The notes beneath the pieces were generated by a model, which was not told where the DNA came from, searched no databases, and saw nothing but the letters and a program-made list of their open reading frames with translations. Shown one piece after another: positions 1,386 to 51,965 of a stretch of 52,656 nt of DNA. This stretch comes from an uncultured Methanosarcinales archaeon (GTDB lineage Archaea > Nanobdellota > Nanobdellia > Woesearchaeales > CAYMBN01): assembly GCA_964388715.1 (NCBI GenBank), contig CAYMBN010000011.1, positions 1 through 52,656 on the forward strand. Reading direction: 5' to 3'. How positions within the stretch are numbered: the first letter of the stretch is position 1; the number at the start of each line of letters is the position of its first letter. A program made the translations under genes and the position numbers.

Positions 1386-1487
1386 AACCTCGTGCTAAAA
1401 AAGGGTTTATTTAGACGGGTAAAAACAAAACATTTAAATATGGGTTTTATTTTATCCTCTATAAATAACTAAAAGGGGGTTATAACT

Positions 1488-5122: not shown

Positions 5123-5282
5123 GATTCTTTTAATTTAACTTGAGAAATTTTTCCTATTAATTTCATAACCAACTGGTAATTATTTTGGAAATATTTTTAC
5201 TACTCTAAAATGGAAATATTTAAATATGAGTTTACTTTTATTTAAGAGTATTATTATGAATTATGAAAACGGGGGGATATAA

Positions 5283-5926
5283 ATGAAAAAATGTTCTGGA
5301 ACACTTATTATACTTGATATGGCTCTTTTGGTTATGATATTTGGTTCTGTTTTATTATTGTTTAAGTTAAGTAGTAGGTTTATTATACAACAATTATTTT
5401 TGCAATTATTATTCTTGTTAATTGGATTTATTGGATTAGTTGCATGTTATAAGAATAAAAGTTATGGATTTAATTTACTTGCACTTGTATTTGGTGTTGG
5501 TTTAATTAATCTGCTTGTTGTTTACTTTACCAGAGGCGGTGGTCTTGTAAAAACAGGTGTGTTAGCGATTGTTGCTGCATTTGCATTTATTGTTTCACTT
5601 GCAAAGATGAGTAGTTGTTGTGTGTGTAGTTTAGATAAAGAAGAAGGGTATCAAGAAAAACTTGAGAAAGTTGCTAGGGAAAGAGTTGAGTCTGAAGCTG
5701 AACCTTTGGGAGAAGTTCCTGAAGTTGAAGTGTATGGTGGAAAAGGTAAGAAAGCAACAAAGAAATCTAAAGCACAGTTTAAGCCTGGTAAGTTTATTGC
5801 AAGTAAAAAAGGTACAAAGTTTCACACTGCAAAATGTGATTGGGCAAAAAAGATTGACAAGCGTAACAGAGTTTGGCTAAAGAAGCTAAGAAAAAAGGTT
5901 ATAAAGCTTGTAATTGTGTTAAGTAA
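5283..5926 (+). pseudogene. 4-TM membrane protein with C-terminal Ada-type metal-binding domain, frameshifted near 5880
   Basis: ASKKGTKFHTAKCDWAKKIDKRNRVWL in frame; the expected EAKKKGYKACNCVK* continues in the -1 frame (5882-5926). Confidence 0.7.
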
Positions 5927-8714: not shown

Positions 8715-10138
8715 TGATGAAAATGAAATGGAAGTTTTTATTGGATAGGAAGAATCTGACTTTAGTATTTTATGAACTTGTTACTAGGTATCAGACTGAG
8801 AAAGGTATGAAAGAGATTATGGGTGTTGATTTTGGGTTTGATAATTATAGAGCAGTGCAAGGTGCTGTGTATTATGGTGCTGAGGATGTTAAAAAAGCAA
8901 ATAAAAAAGTAAAGCAGATTTATCTGAAGAAAGGGGCTGGTTTTTTTAAATCATTAATTGAACAATGGAATGATTTTTTTGATGAGTTGTTGAAACTTAG
9001 TGTTGTTATTTCAAAAATAGATTATTCTGATAAGAGTAATGATGAACTGGTAGATGATCTTAGGAAATTAAGGGATGCTTATTACAAAACTTCAACTGCA
9101 CTCTACTCTCCTATTTTAATTGAAGCTTTAGCTGATGATATTATGAGAAAATATTTGCAAGAGAGGACTGATAAAGTAATTGATTTTTTTAATATTTTAA
9201 CAACTCCTGTTATTGAAAGTGATGCTACAAAAGAATTGAAAAGTATTTTGAAGATAGCTATTAAGAAGAATGATATTTCTAATGATATTAAGAAGCATAT
9301 TAAAGAATTTGGTTGGATTAATGCAAGAGGGTTTGGTGGAGATGGATGGTCAGAGAAAGAAGTTTTGGAAAGACTTGATTATATTTTGAAAGAAGATCCT
9401 AAAGAAAAACTAGATAAGTTGGAAAAGCATGCAAAAGGAGTTGTGGAAGAAACAGAAAAAGTGTTATCTGTGATTAATGCTGACCAAAAATTTAGAGAAT
9501 TTGTTGAAATAACAAAAGATTTTGTGTTTTTTAGAAATTATAGGATGGATATGTATACTAAAGCTGGTTTTGTTGCAAGAAATTTGTTTAGAGAGATTGC
9601 AAAGCGGTTAGGAATTGATTTGTGTGATTTGTTTTATTTGTTGACAGATGAAATTGTTGATGCTCTTAATAGTGATGAGGATTATTTGGATAAGATTAAG
9701 GAAAGGAAGAAAGGTTATGTTTATATTTTACAAAAAGAGAAAATAACAATTTTGGTAGGTAGGGAGCTTGAAGAATATAAGAAAAAAGAAATTAAAGATG
9801 AAGTTGAACAAGTTGATGAGGTTAAAGGAACTATTGCTTGTAAAGGTAAAGTTACTGGAATTGTTAAACTTGTTCCTGGAAAAAAAGATATTGGTAAGGT
9901 TGAGAAAGGTGATGTGTTGGTTACATCAATGACAACTCCTGATTTTGTTCCTGCAATGGAGAAGGCAGCTGCTTTTGTGACAGATGAAGGCGGTATTTGT
10001 TGTCATGCAGCGATTGTTTCGCGTGAAATGGAAAAACCGTGTGTTATAGGGACTAAGATTGCTACAAGAGTGTTTAAAGATGGGGATAAGGTTGAGGTTG
10101 ATGCTGAGACGGGAGTTGTTAGAAAGATTTATAAATGA
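8714..10138 (+). CDS. PEP-utilising enzyme family protein (C-terminal phospho-His swivel domain)
   Basis: GDVLVTSMTTPDFVPAMEKAAAFVTDEGGICCHAAIVSRE; no ATP-grasp domain recognisable. Confidence 0.85.
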   Translation: MMKMKWKFLLDRKNLTLVFYELVTRYQTEKGMKEIMGVDFGFDNYRAVQGAVYYGAEDVKKANKKVKQIYLKKGAGFFKSLIEQWNDFFDELLKLSVVISKIDYSDKSNDELVDDLRKLRDAYYKTSTALYSPILIEALADDIMRKYLQERTDKVIDFFNILTTPVIESDATKELKSILKIAIKKNDISNDIKKHIKEFGWINARGFGGDGWSEKEVLERLDYILKEDPKEKLDKLEKHAKGVVEETEKVLSVINADQKFREFVEITKDFVFFRNYRMDMYTKAGFVARNLFREIAKRLGIDLCDLFYLLTDEIVDALNSDEDYLDKIKERKKGYVYILQKEKITILVGRELEEYKKKEIKDEVEQVDEVKGTIACKGKVTGIVKLVPGKKDIGKVEKGDVLVTSMTTPDFVPAMEKAAAFVTDEGGICCHAAIVSREMEKPCVIGTKIATRVFKDGDKVEVDAETGVVRKIYK

Positions 10139-12306: not shown

Positions 12307-12349
12307 TTCCAAAACTTTTTAAATTAAATTATAATTTTATCTTTTTGTT

Positions 12350-12470
12350 GGGCTCATAGCTCAGTCTGGTTAGAGCGATGGCCTCTTAATCCAAAAGGAG
12401 TAAGCCATAGGTCGTGGGTTCGAATTGTGCGAAGGTTCAAAGCTTCGCTTCGAAATTCCCTCTGAGCCCG
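12350..12470 (+). tRNA. tRNA-Lys(CTT) with two introns (12389-12402 at 37/38; 12425-12456 at 59/60)
   Basis: Removing both introns gives a 75-nt cloverleaf; each junction forms a bulge-helix-bulge. Confidence 0.9.
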
Positions 12471-12483
12471 TTTTTATTTTTTC

Positions 12484-14940
12484 TTAGAAGAAACTTCCTA
12501 ACTTACTCTGATCCTTGCTTTCGAGTAAGTCTTCTGATTTGAAACCAAGGACTTCGAAAATACTTTGGACAGCTGGAACTATTTGATGTTTTATGTAATA
12601 TTCTGAATCATAATCATTGTCTTTGATTTCATCAGGGAGTTTGACTCTGTCACGAATCCTTCCTTTGCCTTCTGCAACTATGTATGATATCATTGTGCCT
12701 GGTGGAACTTCTTCACCTTTACTTTGCATACGTTGTGCAGCAGCAACATGAGGACCATATGTTTCATAGTCTGCAATGTCTTTTTGTAATTGTGTGACAA
12801 TTATTAATTTGTTAGGATTAACCTTTTTTGTTCTGAGGTCATGGATAACTTCTTTTACATATTCAAATGCTTTTGTTTGTTTGTCATATTTAAGGATCAT
12901 GTTAAGAACTTTTTGTTGAACTTGTTTTGCAATTGTACTCCAATTTCTTCTGACTGCTTCAAAACCTTTTATTTTTATTACTCCTTTATTTGATACTAAA
13001 GCGTATTTTTTCTTTGCACCATAACTACCTTGTTTTGCAGGAACAAAAATACCTTTTGGATAATGACCTTCAAATTCAAGTTCCATTATACCTGGAAGAT
13101 CTTTATTTATTATTTTAACAAATTCTTTTGCATCTTGCATTGTTTTTTTTCCAAGTGTTAAGAATACTGAATCTGTATCAGAGTAAAGTACATTAAAACC
13201 TTTTTTTTGTGCTTTATTAATAACTTTTTTTATGTAGTACCTTCCATAGGCTGTGATTGATTTTGCACATTCAAGAGAATACCAGCGTGCACCAAAGAAT
13301 CCATAATAACCATATGTTGCATTAGCAAGTAATTTAAGACCTTCTGATCTTGCGTTTAATAGTGGATTTTTCTTTTTCTCTTTTTTTAAGATTTCTTTAA
13401 CACGCATTCTTCGTGTTATAAGATCTTCAACTATTGTTGGAATAAAACCTTTTTTTTGTTTACAAAACCAATATTTTTTGTGTTCAGTAGGTGCTTTTTC
13501 TGCTTTTCCTCTGCAACAACCACATTTTAATGTGTCTGGAGAAATGTTGTGTGAGGTAATTATTGTTGGGTACAGACTTCTGAAATCAAACACGATAATG
13601 TCATCATATAAACCTGGTTTTGGTTCATATACAAAAGCTCCTGTAAAAGTGTGTAATCTTCTTTCTTTTATTTGATTATGATGTGGTTTGTTTGAAGCAA
13701 TTTCATTGAATAAAGGAGCTTGTTTTAGAATGTGCCATTCAACTAATTGTGAGAAACCCATTCTACTTGTGTCAAACAAAGGCAGATTGACAAGTTTAAC
13801 CATTTCTTCAATTAAGGGATATATTTTTTTTAGTAATCCTAATGTTAAATTACAATCTTGTAAATTGTATGTGCAGTATTGTTCAAGTTTTTTTGGATGT
13901 TTGTCCCAGACTTCTGCTAATTTTTCCATTTCAATTTCTTGTTTTTTTTGTCCAAGTATTTCTGTTGCGACATCATCTAATCTGTATGAGTCTGTTTCAA
14001 GTGTTCTGCTCATTACACTTTTTATGAATTTGAAAACGTCAACATGAACAATGCCGTTAAGTTTGATTGATTCTGCTCTTCCTCTTCCAGTCATGGGTTC
14101 TAAATTGTCTAAACCTATGTTTAGTTTTATTTTGTATTTTTTTGCTCGTTCAATAATGTAAGGGAAATCAAATCCATCTGAGAAGTAACCTGTTATTATG
14201 TCTGGTTTAAATTTCTCAATTGTTTCTTTAAAATCTTCAAGCAATTCGATTTCACTTTTTACGAAATTAATGTATTTATGTTTTGTTTTGAAATGTTTCC
14301 ATGTTGTAACTTTTTCAAATTTGTCTGCTTTGTAACCTAACATAATAATTGGATGTTTTTCAGGCATAACTGCTTTACCTAATGGATTATATGTTTCAAT
14401 GTCAATTGCAAGGATTCTTGGTTTGATAGAGTCAGTTGATTCTTGTTTGATGTTAGTTGCCTTGAAAATAGGTACTTTAAGATTTCCTTGGATAAAGTCA
14501 CCTTCTGCTTGCCATAATGTTAATGGTGTGAGAGCTTTGTCAATCAGATATCTTCTTATGAATTTGATGTCATACTCATAAATCTCTTTTACCATGTCCC
14601 ACTCTTTGATGACTTGTCTTATTGCTGGGACAGAAGAAGGTAGATTTACAAAGAGTTTGATTGTTTGAACATCTTTGCCAAGGTGTTTTTTTTGATGTTG
14701 TTCAAGTTTTGTAACAAAAGCATCACCTTTTTTTGTTTCAACTTTAAGTTTTAATGCTTTTCTTTGAAATTCTTTGAAATCGTCATTATCTTCAAGTATG
14801 ACCCAGAAATATGGTTGAAATGAGTCATCTATCACACAGACTTGTTTATTATCAATTGTTCTGCCAAATAGATGGATTAAGGCTTTGTTCCTTGTGATTC
14901 TGTACATTATGTCTAAACAGTGGAAGTGGATTTTTGGCAT
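12484..14940 (-). CDS. polB: family B DNA polymerase
   Basis: DIET exonuclease motif, DFRSLYPTII, KLLANATYGY, YSDTDS; C-terminal PIP box QSKLGSFF; no intein. Confidence 0.97.
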   Translation of the reverse strand: MPKIHFHCLDIMYRITRNKALIHLFGRTIDNKQVCVIDDSFQPYFWVILEDNDDFKEFQRKALKLKVETKKGDAFVTKLEQHQKKHLGKDVQTIKLFVNLPSSVPAIRQVIKEWDMVKEIYEYDIKFIRRYLIDKALTPLTLWQAEGDFIQGNLKVPIFKATNIKQESTDSIKPRILAIDIETYNPLGKAVMPEKHPIIMLGYKADKFEKVTTWKHFKTKHKYINFVKSEIELLEDFKETIEKFKPDIITGYFSDGFDFPYIIERAKKYKIKLNIGLDNLEPMTGRGRAESIKLNGIVHVDVFKFIKSVMSRTLETDSYRLDDVATEILGQKKQEIEMEKLAEVWDKHPKKLEQYCTYNLQDCNLTLGLLKKIYPLIEEMVKLVNLPLFDTSRMGFSQLVEWHILKQAPLFNEIASNKPHHNQIKERRLHTFTGAFVYEPKPGLYDDIIVFDFRSLYPTIITSHNISPDTLKCGCCRGKAEKAPTEHKKYWFCKQKKGFIPTIVEDLITRRMRVKEILKKEKKKNPLLNARSEGLKLLANATYGYYGFFGARWYSLECAKSITAYGRYYIKKVINKAQKKGFNVLYSDTDSVFLTLGKKTMQDAKEFVKIINKDLPGIMELEFEGHYPKGIFVPAKQGSYGAKKKYALVSNKGVIKIKGFEAVRRNWSTIAKQVQQKVLNMILKYDKQTKAFEYVKEVIHDLRTKKVNPNKLIIVTQLQKDIADYETYGPHVAAAQRMQSKGEEVPPGTMISYIVAEGKGRIRDRVKLPDEIKDNDYDSEYYIKHQIVPAVQSIFEVLGFKSEDLLESKDQSKLGSFF

Positions 14941-15051
14941 TTTTAAGTAGAATGTAGAAGTTGGTTTATTTAAAGGTTTAGGAATATATTGTCTAGAGCA
15001 GAAAACTTTATATAGCTTGGAGTATTTGGGTATACACTGGGGGCAAAAAAT

Positions 15052-15252
15052 ATGGTAGATAGGTTTAAACTGGAATGTATGAAATTAGCAAAACTGCAAA
15101 GAGCGCAGTTTAGAGAAGTTCTAAGGTATGTTATTAAGCAGAAGAAGCCGTTAAAGTATGATGTTTTCTCTAGGTTTTGTGGTATTTCAAGGCAACAATG
15201 GGATAAGTTCCGTTCTGAGAACAGAGAAGTTAATATTAAGTGGATGGTTTAG
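15052..15252 (+). CDS. small hypothetical protein, possible HTH
   Basis: GGGGG RBS and TATA upstream; FSRFCGISRQQWDKF resembles an HTH. Confidence 0.6.
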   Translation: MVDRFKLECMKLAKLQRAQFREVLRYVIKQKKPLKYDVFSRFCGISRQQWDKFRSENREVNIKWMV

Positions 15253-39682: not shown

Positions 39683-40309
39683 ATGAAATTAATAATTACA
39701 AAAGACAGTTCAATTACGTTTCATAATGATAATTATGATGAAACATATCATTCTGTGAGTGGGGCTAGGCAGGAAAGTGTTAAAAAGTTTGTTGAACCGT
39801 GTAAAAAATTGTTTTGTAAAGATAGATTGGATGTTCTTGATGTGTGTTTTGGAATAGGATATAATACAGCAGCTTTAATGGATAGTTATAGTGGTGAGTT
39901 AAATATTGTGTGTTTAGAAAATGATCCTGTAATTTTGCAAGAAGTTTTGAAAATTGATCCTGATTTTAGGAATTATGATTTGATTAAAGAATTAGTTAGG
40001 AAAAATAAAGTTGAAAAAGGTAATGTAAAGATTAGTTTGGTTATTGAAGATGCAAGGAAGTCTGTGAAGAAGTTGAATGTGGGTTTTGATATTTGTTTTC
40101 TTGATCCTTTTTCTCCAAAAAAATGTCCGGAGTTGTGGACTGTGGAGTTTTTGAGTGATATTTTTAGATTAATGAAGAAGGGTGGGATATTGACAACTTA
40201 TTCTTGTGCAAGAAGTGTTCGTGAGAATTTGGAGAGGGTGGGGTTTGTTGTTAAGGATGGGCCTGTTGTTGGAAGAAGAGGGCCTAGTACTGTTGGAGTT
40301 AAGAATTAG
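39683..40309 (+). CDS. MnmC/MnmD-like SAM-dependent methyltransferase
   Basis: ETYHS, DVCFGIGYN, DPFSPKKCPELW, TYS. Confidence 0.9.
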   Translation: MKLIITKDSSITFHNDNYDETYHSVSGARQESVKKFVEPCKKLFCKDRLDVLDVCFGIGYNTAALMDSYSGELNIVCLENDPVILQEVLKIDPDFRNYDLIKELVRKNKVEKGNVKISLVIEDARKSVKKLNVGFDICFLDPFSPKKCPELWTVEFLSDIFRLMKKGGILTTYSCARSVRENLERVGFVVKDGPVVGRRGPSTVGVKN

Positions 40310-41102
40310 TTAAATATTGGTTTACTTTATGGAACAATTTTCTGTATATTAAACCTTGTTCAACATTTTCACATATACTTTCATCAAACATATGAACTAA
40401 TTCTGGCAGACCTTCTTTTCCATAATGGTGTGAAATTTCTAAGAATTTTTCAAGCAAAAATATTGTTTCTATTATGCCTCCTGGAATTGTTTGATTTTTT
40501 ATTTTTTCTTGTTTTTTGTTTTCTCCATCTAATTGTTGCTCAAACCACCTTACTCCTTCAGCATATCCTTCAATTCCAATTAAACTTTCTACATACAATA
40601 TTTGTGTAAGAGCTGCAGCTCCTTCCTCCATGTTAGGAAATTTTTTAATGTATCCTCCTAAATGTCTTGCAATATGAAAAAGTTCGTGTATAAACATTGA
40701 ATTATAATAAACTTGAAGTTCTGAAGTAAGTTCTGGAAGTTCTTCAAGATTTTGATTGTAATATATAATTTTTCCATTAGGTGGACACATATTTTGTTTT
40801 TTTTCTTCAGGACTCATTCTAGGTAATCCTGGATTAGATTCTTTTAATTCTAATATTGCTTTTTCAATACTAGAATTAACTTTTGCTGTGTCATATTGTT
40901 TTAATGATCTTGTTTCTCTTAGCATTTCTATAACTTTTTCATATATATTTGCATTATAAATTTCCTGTCTGGTATAAGGTAATGGAATTGAAAGACCTCC
41001 TTTAACTAATTCTTGAGGTATTAATTCTAAATGACTAAAGTCTAATTTCTGAGAAAAGGTTTCTCTCATAAATCTTATTGCTTCATCTGGTATTGTTAAC
41101 AT
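40299..41102 (-). CDS. hypothetical protein with zincin-like HExxH
   Basis: FIHELFH...MEEGAA. Confidence 0.7.
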   Translation of the reverse strand: MLTIPDEAIRFMRETFSQKLDFSHLELIPQELVKGGLSIPLPYTRQEIYNANIYEKVIEMLRETRSLKQYDTAKVNSSIEKAILELKESNPGLPRMSPEEKKQNMCPPNGKIIYYNQNLEELPELTSELQVYYNSMFIHELFHIARHLGGYIKKFPNMEEGAAALTQILYVESLIGIEGYAEGVRWFEQQLDGENKKQEKIKNQTIPGGIIETIFLLEKFLEISHHYGKEGLPELVHMFDESICENVEQGLIYRKLFHKVNQYLTNS

Positions 41103-41144
41103 TGTTTTAGGAAAGTTGTTACTATTATTTAAATTCTTACAAAG

Positions 41145-41700
41145 AAATGTGAAGGTGAGCTTCACTATGGGGGGCTCACCTAAATGTGATGATAGTCCCT
41201 GTCAGATCAACTAAAAAGCCCACTCTAGTTAATCAAGGACTGTTATGAGAGTGAAAGAGAAAGGCTCCCGAGGGTTAGAGGGGGTTTGGGAGAAATATTT
41301 GGGAGCCAGAGTTAATATAAAAGTGGAACAAGCCTTTGGGGGGTCATGTTCCACTAGTGCGTACTGAGACTATTTTAGCTTTCGAGCAACGTATGATCAG
41401 GGCATTAATTACGTATGTCACCTCATTTTTTTAGTCCCTGGATCTTTTGATGAGACAGGAATCACCTTAGCATACTACGTTTAGTGTAATCCTATTAGCA
41501 TGTGTCAGTTAATACTATGTCTTCTGACTTTTCTATGCATTGACGTATTGCTTGCATAGCAGCTTTTTTCATTTGCTTAAAGCTCCATTCTATATGATCA
41601 TTACCAGAATTCTTTCGTTCGAAAGAATTCACAGGCTCCCTGACGAGGGTCGAGGGGGTTAGAAAAAATCAAGGAGCCCTGATTTTTTGATTGTGTATCT
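41145..41700 (-). ncRNA. candidate large structured non-coding RNA (~550 nt), family unrecognised
   Basis: No long ORF, raised GC, at least 11 consecutive stem-loops, repeated loop motif, minus-strand TATA at 41725-41732. Confidence 0.6.
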
Positions 41701-41873
41701 TAATATACTGTATAATTAAACTAGTATATAAATGTTACTATTTAGTATACTGGTGTGGATAAGTGTGATATGGATTATGGTGTTATAGGGCTTATGGCTC
41801 AAGAATTTTTAATTTAGTACTCAATAGTTACAAAACGAAAGTTTTATATATTATGCAGAAATTATGGATTTTA

Positions 41874-43139
41874 ATGAGTAATTTACCAGAAAGGATTGAA
41901 GAGAGAACATTGGATGATTTATATGCTGAAGCTGTTGAAGCTTTTGATGTAGGAGATTTTGGAGTAGCAATTGATAATTGTGATGTGATAATTACTAAAC
42001 GTGATTCAGATCATTTTGATTCTTATCTTTTGAGAGGACAAGCATTTTACAAAAATTCTAGGCGTCTTCAAGAGTTGAATAGAATCCCTGGATATCAATT
42101 AAAAGATGATGATGAACTTGAATTAATTTGTAATGAAGTAAATATCTCTACTGATGAATTTACAATTGATAGATTGATTCAAGAATATTTTAAACAGGCT
42201 GCAAATGATTTTGAAAGAAGTGTTGAATTAAATCCTAACTCTTATGTTGCACATTGTTTTGCAGCACAGGCTTATTTCTTTGTTGAAGAGCCAGAAAAAG
42301 TTTTGGAACATCTTGATATGGCAATAAGGATGAAATCTGAAATAGGTGAACAACCTAAAATAAAATACTTGCAAGCAGAGTCTTTAAGAAAAACATGTAA
42401 ATTTGATTTAGCACTTAAAAAATTTGATGAAGTAATTGCTGAGTTAGAACCAATTGTTTGTGCTGATGAAGGTGATTCAGCTGTGTCACATGAAAAACTT
42501 GTGCAAGAAATAAATAGTTCTGAGAAAGAATTTGGTCAATTAATAAGGACTTATTTGGGTGCTATTGATACTTGTGATGATATGCGTAAATTGAGAAAAG
42601 CAACCCCTTATTTAGAAGGATTACTAAAAATAAGTCCTGATATAGATAGTTATATAATTGCTCTTGAAGTGTATTCTAATCTAAGAGATTGGAAAAAAGT
42701 TGTTTCATATGTTGATCAAGGTATGGGTGAGACAGTAAGTAACCCAGAACATTTTATTCCTATTTTTAATGCTTACAAAGCAGTTGCTTTGTCTTTGTTA
42801 AAAAGGTACGATGAAGCATTAAAGTTGATAGATAAAACAATTGAGATAGGTATTAGTCATGAAGATGAGAGTCTGCTTAAATTTTACAAAGCAATATGTT
42901 TATTTGGATTAGAAAGATATATGGAAGCTGAAGATCTTTTTCGTGATGTAGCTGTTTCTAATCCTGGAATAGGAAAGTATAAAGTATCTTATGAGAGAGC
43001 AGCAGAATATATAAGAATAAAAGATGATCCTGACGCTTTGAGAGAGGTTAATCTTGATAGAGAATTACAAGAACGTAGAAATCAGTTTGATGATTTTCTA
43101 GTCACTAGTCTTTCACCAAAAAAGGATATGAAAAATTAA
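41874..43139 (+). CDS. TPR-repeat protein
   Basis: Several TPR-like units, e.g. DFERSVELNPNSYVAH and YDEALKLIDKTIE. Confidence 0.82.
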   Translation: MSNLPERIEERTLDDLYAEAVEAFDVGDFGVAIDNCDVIITKRDSDHFDSYLLRGQAFYKNSRRLQELNRIPGYQLKDDDELELICNEVNISTDEFTIDRLIQEYFKQAANDFERSVELNPNSYVAHCFAAQAYFFVEEPEKVLEHLDMAIRMKSEIGEQPKIKYLQAESLRKTCKFDLALKKFDEVIAELEPIVCADEGDSAVSHEKLVQEINSSEKEFGQLIRTYLGAIDTCDDMRKLRKATPYLEGLLKISPDIDSYIIALEVYSNLRDWKKVVSYVDQGMGETVSNPEHFIPIFNAYKAVALSLLKRYDEALKLIDKTIEIGISHEDESLLKFYKAICLFGLERYMEAEDLFRDVAVSNPGIGKYKVSYERAAEYIRIKDDPDALREVNLDRELQERRNQFDDFLVTSLSPKKDMKN

Positions 43140-43207
43140 GTTTTTCTCTAAACTGTTTTAACTTTGTCAAAAGATTTTTATATTCAACTTATTCTTTTTT
43201 GGTTATT

Positions 43208-43279
43208 GCCCTCATAGTATAATGGATAGTACACAAGGTTGCGGACCTTGGAGCCGGAGTTCAATTCTTCGTGAGGGCG
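43208..43279 (+). tRNA. tRNA-Arg(GCG)
   Basis: GCCCTCA/TGAGGGC acceptor stem, CAAGG-TTGCGGA-CCTTG anticodon arm, TTCAATT T-loop. Confidence 0.94.
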
Positions 43280-43636
43280 TAATTGTCTTTTAGTTGTGAC
43301 GATAAAATTAAAATTCAGTCGATAATTTTATAAACTTACAGAGAATTTCATTAAGAATGGAAGAAAATAAACCCTCAAGTCAGGATTTGTATCCTATCTA
43401 TTTTATGGATTATAGTGCTACTGCTTTTGCGACAACAAGTAAAGCAGTGGTGGCTGCGACTGATGAAAAACAAGCCCAATCATTACTTGAAGCAACATTA
43501 AGAGGTGATAATACTGTTGCTAAACGTAATAAAAGACCTCTTGAGATTATAACTTGTACTGATACTGGATATAATGCAGATAAGGAAGGCGTAATTCTTC
43601 ATTAATTTTTAATTAAAATTCTTCGTGATGGCGTAA
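43263..43636. mobile_element. mini-islet at the tRNA-Arg 3' end bounded by a 20-bp att-like repeat
   Basis: AATTCTTCGTGA(G/T)GGCGTAA at 43263-43282 and 43617-43636 (19/20). Confidence 0.7.
43357..43605 (+). CDS. small hypothetical protein (islet cargo)
   Basis: 82-aa ORF with its own TATA box. Confidence 0.7.
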   Translation: MEENKPSSQDLYPIYFMDYSATAFATTSKAVVAATDEKQAQSLLEATLRGDNTVAKRNKRPLEIITCTDTGYNADKEGVILH

Positions 43637-50474: not shown

Positions 50475-50777
50475 CAGCGTCGATATTTCTTAAAATGTAT
50501 ACAAAAAGTATATAGTGGAGAATAGAAATATTTATATATAAGTAGTGCATTACAAATATTAGAAAAAAAACCTGTTTTTTGGCGGAAACTCGGTTTTGTG
50601 TTGTGTTTTAGATGTTTTTAAGCTTTCTACAGCTTGAAGTCGCTTTGTCCGAAACTTGTTGGCGCAAGTTTGAACGTTGTTTCTAAGAAAAGTAAAGATC
50701 ATTACCCTTATAAATGTTTCGATACTGGAACATATATGTTAGGGTAAATAAGATAAACAAAAAGGGGAGGCGAAAAA

Positions 50778-51858: not shown

Positions 51859-51965
51859 ATGTGGTTTGCGGTGGGCTGCAAACCACATTTTATATTCATT
51901 GGTTGCCCTCTTTTCCATCTAACTTCTCCACACCCCCTAAGGAAGAGGGCATTTCTTTTTTTTAA
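51859..51965 (+). terminator. two hairpins plus T-tract 3' of ftsZ
   Basis: 13-bp stem 51859-51888; GCCCTCTT/GAAGAGGGC stem 51905-51950 with C-rich loop; poly-T follows. Confidence 0.65.

Follow-up and report, generated by a model that had tools for sequence, protein, structure and literature searches.

What is the role of a cluster of hairpins with C-rich loops that lies between two divergent genes in an archaeon most of whose genes are leaderless? The question is posed by contig CAYMBN010000011.1 of an uncultured archaeon, a stretch of 52,656 nucleotides that was analysed whole and is here called the window. The window is an AT-rich archaeal contig (31% GC), and the cluster sits in a 749-nt, GC-enriched gap (41103-41852), with GC peaking at 0.48 in 120-nt windows of 41188-41466 against the window mean of 0.31. 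An earlier note on this DNA had described two related hairpins on the minus strand and two more with runs of six C, and had suggested that their loops could pair with many ribosome-binding sites or serve as multivalent sites for a protein. The cluster most probably forms part of an orphan regulatory RNA transcribed from the minus strand, itself a plausible candidate. Ranked by probability, an RNA that acts by base pairing comes first, an RNA that binds protein second, and the messenger of a small protein third.

The cluster consists of four hairpins on the minus strand, the last of which runs into a U-rich tail (C5 denotes a run of five C, and likewise for other letters and lengths):

41634-41678, minus strand: hairpin A, a 10-bp stem (one G·U) with a 25-nt G-poor loop, -16.0 kcal/mol
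41322-41355, minus strand: hairpin L2, a 9-bp stem with C6 then AAAG in the loop, -13.9 kcal/mol
41263-41307, minus strand: hairpin B, a 7-bp stem with a 31-nt loop free of G, -11.6 kcal/mol
41153-41181, minus strand: hairpin L4, an 8-bp stem with C6 then AUAG in the loop, -11.3 kcal/mol
41152-41139, minus strand: U-rich tail after hairpin L4, just ahead of the TATA box of the next gene

Hairpins A and B, the related pair of the earlier note, have the sequence described there and carry GGCUCC/GGAGCC arms in common. The loop of hairpin A holds UCUAAC, C5 and CCCUCG, that of hairpin B holds CUCCC, C5, UCUAAC and CCCUC, with UUUCUCUUUC following, and in both loops AACCCCCUC precedes CCCUCG. A covariance model built from hairpin B alone and run over both strands of the window links the two, recovering hairpin A at 21.6 bits (E-value 0.002); its next-best match that is neither hairpin nor the strand opposite one has an E-value of 1.3. 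An ungapped pattern allowing up to 3 mismatches found only one copy, because the spacing of the loop motifs differs by one base. The two C6 hairpins, L2 and L4, also proved real by folding, and their loops have the 10-nt word CCCCCCA(A/U)AG in common, with one mismatch. Hairpins B and L4 are each followed by U-rich tracts, and hairpins A and L2 are internal.

The clustering of these C-rich-loop hairpins is real and non-random. Nine runs of at least G5 occur on the plus strand of the window, four of them within 41169-41658, where dinucleotide shuffles of 41146-41700 yield a mean of 0.50 and reach four in 1 of 5000 cases. A hairpin descriptor (stem of 6 bp or more, including 4 or more G-C pairs; loop of 10-36 nt with at most 3 G and at least 35% C, containing CCC) had 6 matches on both strands of the window, compared with 0.4 +/- 0.7 in 100 locally shuffled windows (maximum 3). 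Four of the six are hairpins A, B, L2 and L4, and the other two lie just after ftsZ:

51859-51888, plus strand: first hairpin after ftsZ, with a 10-nt loop
51904-51951, plus strand: hairpin E, a 10-11-bp stem with a 26-28-nt loop containing UCUAAC, UCUCC and C5, and T8 beyond it at 51956-51963

The region of these two hairpins after the ftsZ stop codon (51859-51963) has a joint z score of -3.08, and its predicted fold may be that of a small RNA or of a structured 3' untranslated region. Hairpin E is situated between ftsZ and an HPPK gene, both on the plus strand, and its C-rich strand is the coding strand of both neighbours and presumably transcribed. Its loop contains 51933-51937, which is the sole C5 run of the window's plus strand. 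UCUAAC and a C5U word are common to loops A, B and E; there are 21 copies of UCUAAC on both strands of the window, and about 0.02 would be expected in 84 loop nucleotides. The hairpin B model did not find hairpin E significantly (9.2 bits, E-value 4.6), and the stems are unrelated, so that the loop words make kinship of hairpin E to hairpins A and B suggestive.

Which strand of the gap is transcribed bears directly on what the loops can do. Most of the 55 long open reading frames (ORFs) of the window are leaderless, with a B recognition element (BRE) and TATA box about 30 nt upstream of the ATG, and a minority have G-rich ribosome sites. A promoter position matrix was built from the upstream regions of the window's own leaderless genes; applied to the three tRNA genes, which had no part in its construction, it puts a site 32-35 nt upstream of each. 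Within the gap, the matrix finds one orphan site:

41719-41740, minus strand: BRE/TATA promoter-like site, with the TATA starting at 41732 and a predicted transcription start near 41702

This site scores 12.8 and 14.0 with the matrix, compared with 8.0 for the 99.9th percentile of window positions, and has no ATG at +30, where leaderless genes start. It is the sole promoter-like site in 41100-41800 that lacks a start codon at the leaderless position, and no plus-strand site above the 99.5th percentile was found in the same interval.

Folding points the same way. A 571-nt minus-strand RNA has a z score of -4.10, with 0 of 100 shuffles as good, compared with -1.77 and 4 of 100 for the plus strand, and 41140-41470 alone gives -3.22 on the minus and -1.45 on the plus strand. 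In the minus-strand ensemble, the four C5/C6 runs are mostly unpaired (mean unpaired probability 0.51-1.0, compared with 0.46 overall), and the three C runs in the loop of hairpin B reach 1.0. The minimum-energy fold has 159 pairs, of which 13 are G·U, including one in hairpin A and one in a competing 5' hairpin with A6/U6 arms; on the plus strand each of the 13 would turn into an A·C mismatch. Sliding windows of 120 nt give modest z scores on both strands, which alone are insufficient to settle the strand. The choice of the minus strand in the earlier note is thus supported by the orphan promoter-like site, the fold z score and the unpaired C runs, and these predictions, together with the G·U pairs and a hairpin after ftsZ that is C-rich on the coding strand, favour minus-strand transcription.

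It is very unlikely that the function lies instead on the plus strand, the loops of which would be G-rich and Shine-Dalgarno-like, or in a DNA element such as operators, G-rich protein sites or a replication origin. The plus strand does have the lower absolute fold energy (-161 compared with -147 kcal/mol), but its z scores are weak, its A·C mismatches would include one in each alternative 5' hairpin, and hairpin E has its C-rich side on the strand that carries the genes to either side of it. At 41663-41688, a hairpin with T6 after it resembles a plus-strand terminator, yet the plus strand of the interval is devoid of a promoter-like site. The position between divergent promoters and a perfect 24-bp palindrome would suit a DNA element, and dyads followed by strings of G recall archaeal origin recognition boxes. 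A replication origin was nevertheless rejected: cumulative G-C has no turning point from position 1 to 52648, no Orc1/Cdc6 was found in the 56 ORFs scanned with Pfam, and the hairpin cluster is GC-enriched rather than AT-rich. Cumulative G-C climbs almost linearly to +2988 over 52.6 kb regardless of gene orientation, so the contig seems to lie within one replichore and to have a strong strand skew. That skew explains in part why G5 or longer runs (9) outnumber C5 or longer runs (1) on the plus strand.

Given a minus-strand transcript, we tentatively prefer the reading in which all the hairpins belong to one promoter-driven RNA that acts in trans by pairing with G-rich leaders. The transcript would start near 41702 and end near 41140, giving about 560 nt, and its four stable stems would keep the C5-C6 runs of the G-poor loops single-stranded. 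The loops would then be seeds for pairing with GGGGG, GAGGG and GGGAG in the leaders of the minority of genes that are leadered, and pairing would block ribosome binding or alter messenger stability. A 25-residue peptide may in addition be encoded in the 5' part of the transcript, and the RNA would then be dual-functional.

The leaders that such seeds would address do exist in the window. The G-rich ribosome sites of the earlier note were borne out, with GGGGGG, GGGGAGG, GAGGTG and GGAGGG found 4-8 nt before start codons, and three unbroken G runs are prominent among the sites:

1475-1479, plus strand: G5 run before the ATG at 1488
5271-5276, plus strand: G6 run before the ATG at 5283
15039-15043, plus strand: G5 run before the ATG at 15052

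These runs stand 6-8 nt before their ATGs, with GGGGG 8 nt upstream at 1488 and 15052. The three genes have no assigned function and encode proteins of 85 aa (rich in lysine and containing an internal repeat), 221 aa and 66 aa, respectively; for two of the genes, promoter-like sites suggest short leaders of about 15-25 nt. In addition, ftsZ is preceded by a 303-nt gap (50475-50777, plus strand) in which the best promoter-like site (TATA start 50531, score 15.5) predicts a leader of about 215 nt, unusual in a mostly leaderless genome, and its ribosome site is GGGGAGG.

The distribution of the two kinds of run is complementary. All five C5 or longer runs on strands inferred to be transcribed lie in hairpin loops, four in the gap and one after ftsZ, and three of the four G5 or longer runs on a gene's transcribed strand are those before the ATGs at 1488, 5283 and 15052, the fourth being inside a coding sequence. 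Of 59 start regions, 3 contain a perfect GC-rich complement of 6 nt to the loops, compared with 0.19% of 20,000 random coding windows; at 5 nt the count is 6 of 59, compared with a background of 1.6%, and the six include ftsZ and sepF. Loop A and the leader of the gene at 1488 have 9 nt of complementarity, an extension that by rough estimate is not significant alone. The suggestion that the loops pair with many ribosome-binding sites therefore stands in part: they are complementary to GGGGG(G), GAGGG and GGGAG, but they lack CCUCC, their duplex energies with start regions stay close to background and their potential targets are few. For a handful of G-run leaders, the anti-Shine-Dalgarno idea is plausible from these matches.

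Several results weigh against pairing with leaders as the mechanism. CCUCC is the core of the archaeal anti-Shine-Dalgarno sequence, and none of the loops contains it, so they do not mimic that sequence and match only sites of the G-run type. Duplex energies of -10 kcal/mol or lower occur in 11 of 55 start regions, compared with 10.6% of 2000 background windows, and at -12 kcal/mol the figures are 4 of 55 and 5%. Scanning the five loops over the whole window produced no outstanding target, only bulged duplexes laden with G·U; the best one, inside a coding sequence at 9316-9360, was not counted, as it consists of overlapping alternative pairings. Most genes being leaderless, possible targets would be few rather than many. 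The order of UCUAAC and C5 differs among loops A, B and E, which one common RNA target explains poorly and a protein reader with two domains would suit better. No homologue was found by a genome scan for exact matches to a 22-base pattern, described below. Finally, the transcript would contain a U6 run about 35-40 nt from its predicted start and, further on, a U5 run (41215-41211); coding strands in the window avoid such runs, so that transcription of the full length is uncertain.

The avoidance can be seen in the coding strands of the 55 long ORFs, which contain 34 runs of T6 or longer compared with 171 of A6 or longer, and 11 of T7 or longer compared with 62 of A7 or longer. Scarcity of T runs fits oligo-T as a transcription stop signal, and lysine-rich codon usage contributes to it. 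A 2026 review connects U-rich signals with archaeal termination, and C-rich signals with bacterial Rho (PMC13675443).

The order of the loop words is more readily accommodated if the RNA binds protein. The RNA would then be a sponge or scaffold, its loops being sites for a single-strand RNA-binding protein that reads UCUAAC plus a C run; the four hairpins of the RNA would serve to titrate that protein or to assemble it, whereas its messenger targets would carry single sites such as hairpin E. The rare UCUAAC and a C5 run come together in loops A, B and E, so that hairpin E lends the sponge reading a little weight, and the order and spacing of the two words vary from loop to loop, as would fit a two-domain protein better. 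The weak energy test for pairing with start regions also leans this way, and many sites in one RNA with single sites in messengers is the layout of CsrB and CsrA. However, Pfam scans of the 56 ORFs of the window revealed no CsrA and no obvious partner beside the locus, hairpin E is tied to the others by its loop words and not by the hairpin B model, and if hairpins A and B arose by a recent duplication, as they may have done, the pair amounts to one observation. A protein-binding role is accordingly doubtful, if second in rank.

Returning to the base-pairing RNA that we prefer, its predicted anatomy includes further elements besides the four C-rich-loop hairpins:

41663-41688, minus strand: 5' hairpin with A6/U6 arms, 11 bp with one G·U, -8.5 kcal/mol in the nascent RNA
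41607-41630, minus strand: perfect 11+2+11 palindrome, 100% complementary, with EcoRI sites at both ends
41495-41572, minus strand: candidate small ORF (25 codons and a stop codon), with GGAG lying 10 nt upstream of its ATG
41188-41466, minus strand: GC-enriched folded domain closed by a long-range helix (41466-41454/41203-41188)
41205-41234, minus strand: 12-bp hairpin with 3 G·U pairs (A·C mismatches if read on the plus strand)

The 5' hairpin excludes hairpin A because the two use the same bases, and 0.6 kcal/mol separates the two folds that the 5' end can thus adopt; its U6 run resembles an archaeal stop signal. The palindrome may, as sequence, serve either as a 10-bp RNA hairpin or as a DNA operator for a transcription factor, or as both. 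The helix that closes the GC-enriched domain continues as 41439-41433/41241-41235 and 41426-41418/41254-41245, and the domain encloses L2, B and the 12-bp hairpin. Words resembling boxes C and D are also present, with UGAU and CUGA flanking the stem at 41199-41243 (minus strand) and GUGAUGA at 41186-41192 (plus strand), and they may include a kink-turn protein site.

The 25-codon ORF has a codon score of 0.35 per codon, which places it 5th among the 249 ORFs that begin with ATG, span 20-60 codons and lie outside annotated frames; true frames average 0.40. This ORF raises the alternative that the transcript is an ordinary leadered messenger for a 25-residue protein, in which the hairpins act in cis on stability, attenuation at the U6 run or formation of the 3' end. 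The rank of the ORF and the GGAG upstream of it agree with such a messenger, but its score is only about 2 standard deviations above that of non-coding ORFs and it is without a homologue: a 45-aa version started at GTG had 0 homologues among 1.84 billion representatives. Two near-equal 5' folds, one of which uses the U6 run, are reminiscent of an attenuator, although roughly 350 nt of the most GC-rich and best-folding sequence would be left 3' of the stop codon. A role in 3'-end formation would be in keeping with the U-rich tracts after B and L4, the T8 after hairpin E and the placement of hairpin E at the position expected for an ftsZ terminator or 3' untranslated region. Yet loops of 25-31 nt are atypical of terminators (those of the hairpins here span 13-31 nt), hairpins A and L2 are internal, and a run of T5 or longer within 60 nt after the stop codon is found in only 21 of 55 genes. 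No hairpins were noticed in the printed stretches downstream of genes, where no hairpin screen was made. The clustering of C runs would also be left unexplained, and we regard a small-protein messenger as unlikely.

Might the RNA belong to a known family? At gathering scores, Rfam finds only two tRNAs in the whole window, and permissive searches of 41000-41900 and 41135-41475 returned sub-threshold snoRNA-like matches only. A C/D-box or H/ACA guide RNA was rejected on those matches (snoR138 at 20.9 bits against a gathering score of 44, sR17 at 12.9 against 36, with E-values of 0.18-4.4). RNase P RNA and SRP RNA are the usual GC-rich RNAs of AT-rich archaea, and neither was matched by the Rfam archaeal models, even at E-values up to 10 with permissive filters; the known large RNAs were likewise set aside on the Rfam results. 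A blastn search with 41100-41760 found no match in phage or plasmid collections, and the 12 stop-to-stop reading frames of the region gave no Pfam match below an E-value of 0.07 and no pseudogene signal. An integration site was considered and rejected, as the nearby tRNA-Arg (43207-43280) has no similarity to the hairpins.

The genome-wide search for the motif that the earlier note had proposed did not extend its range. Exact matches to a 22-base gapped pattern, taken from the shared loop and 3' arm, were sought in 185,579 species genomes, a set that does not include this archaeon's own genome, and only two chance loci were found, in Streptomyces and Gemmatimonadales; both are GC-rich coincidences without the 5' arm. 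The absence of homologues from this exact-match scan, together with a neighbouring gene for an HExxH protein that has no relatives and so points to a fast-changing part of the genome, could mean that the hairpins are decaying leftovers that now serve no function, produced by duplication of one hairpin and by stems formed by chance in DNA that is foreign or degraded. Decay would leave unaccounted for the strong promoter-like site and the fold z score of -4.1, there is no pseudogene signal, and four independent stems all place their C runs in loops, in excess of both the shuffles (1 of 5000) and the descriptor background (6 against 0.4). It is quite improbable for these reasons.

The candidate can be set beside several known systems. 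One of them is Staphylococcus aureus RNAIII, an RNA of about 500 nt within the 5' part of which a short peptide is encoded. The layout proposed here runs parallel to it: a folded 3' domain that displays C-rich loops comes after a candidate ORF of 25 codons. In staphylococcal RNAIII and Rsa RNAs, UCCC motifs left unpaired in hairpin loops are described as binding Shine-Dalgarno sequences and blocking initiation (PMC2790875). The same source describes several unpaired C-rich loop motifs per RNA in RNAIII and the Rsa RNAs, including RsaE (RoxS), as in the four hairpins of the gap (PMC2790875). Those RNAs are bacterial, however, and neither sequence nor structure homology to them was detected, with no Rfam match at any threshold. 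The loops here are also much larger (13-31 nt) and carry C5-C6 rather than UCCC, the host is mostly leaderless with few targets, and the candidate is known from its sequence alone.

Closer in phylogeny are the small RNAs sRNA154 and sRNA41 of Methanosarcina mazei, which are much shorter and have one or two interacting loops. Both are described as masking ribosome-binding sites, sRNA154 through its loop 2 (PMC5867862). Like the candidate, they are archaeal and intergenic, and their anti-ribosome-binding-site loops are described there as repressing translation (PMC5867862). They differ in belonging to another phylum, in having no detected homology to the candidate and in having targets that are experimentally supported.

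CsrB and RsmZ are sponges in which one RNA carries many hairpin loops with the same motif, the motif being single in target messengers. Four loops in one RNA and a loop-related hairpin after ftsZ are similar in plan, whereas the GGA loop motif is absent (loop B has 0 G and the others at most 3), the host is archaeal and no CsrA match was found among the 56 ORFs scanned on the 52.7-kb contig. The alphaproteobacterial small RNA MmgR (Rfam suhB, RF00519) also has C-rich, anti-Shine-Dalgarno-like loops and ends in a terminator; hairpin E matches its model at 15.3 bits, compared with a gathering score of 41, with an E-value of 0.47 in a 156-nt search, which is chance level.

In the literature searched, which covered C-rich-loop small RNAs and C-rich termination signals of archaea as well as structured RNAs of DPANN, precedents came only from bacteria and Methanosarcina, and no regulatory RNA from DPANN archaea was found. 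We know of no anti-ribosome-site RNA with multiple seeds described in Archaea, and of no regulatory RNA described in DPANN. The most specific form of the proposal, an RNAIII-like dual-function RNA of DPANN that combines a 25-residue peptide with four C-run seeds acting on a small regulon of G-run leaders, and to which the 3' hairpin of ftsZ ties cell division, is a long shot.

The window encodes a family-B DNA polymerase, an ATP-dependent DNA ligase, NOG1, aIF1A, L10e, ZPR1, SepF and FtsZ. Relatives of FtsZ at 82-87% identity are numerous, with more than 100 clusters, and because the named ones are Candidatus Woesearchaeota or Nanoarchaeota, the host is taken to be a DPANN archaeon of a Woesearchaeota-like group. 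The genes that flank the gap, and one tRNA gene elsewhere in the window, are as follows:

40299-41102, minus strand: HExxH protein gene (267 aa), flanking the gap on one side
41874, plus strand: leaderless start of the TPR gene on the other flank, read as the second ATG of the ORF
12350-12469, plus strand: tRNA, anticodon read as CUU (Lys), 41.7 bits (gathering score 29) when 12330-12485 was searched alone

Each flanking gene has its own TATA box, in the leaderless register for the HExxH gene and with a predicted start near 41873 for the TPR gene. The 267-aa HExxH protein belongs to no Pfam family and has no relative besides itself in 5.8 billion protein clusters, the 1 of 832 candidates that passed being the protein itself, and a gene without relatives is unable to guide a search by synteny. 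The tRNA at 12350-12469 was missed by ARAGORN and by the whole-window Rfam run; its anticodon loop carries an insertion of 16 nt and its T loop one of 33 nt, and a promoter-like site lies 33 nt upstream of the gene.

If the preferred reading is correct, tiny and mostly leaderless DPANN genomes would keep a long, dedicated riboregulator, with a small candidate regulon made up of the genes that start at 1488, 5283 and 15052, possibly joined by ftsZ and sepF. Should the RNA instead be a protein sponge, it would point to an RNA-binding regulator that has yet to be named. Under the base-pairing reading, GC-rich islands that have a promoter and no ORF would be a workable guide to RNA genes in AT-rich metagenomic bins, and the C-rich-loop route to G-rich ribosome sites would have arisen independently in Archaea.

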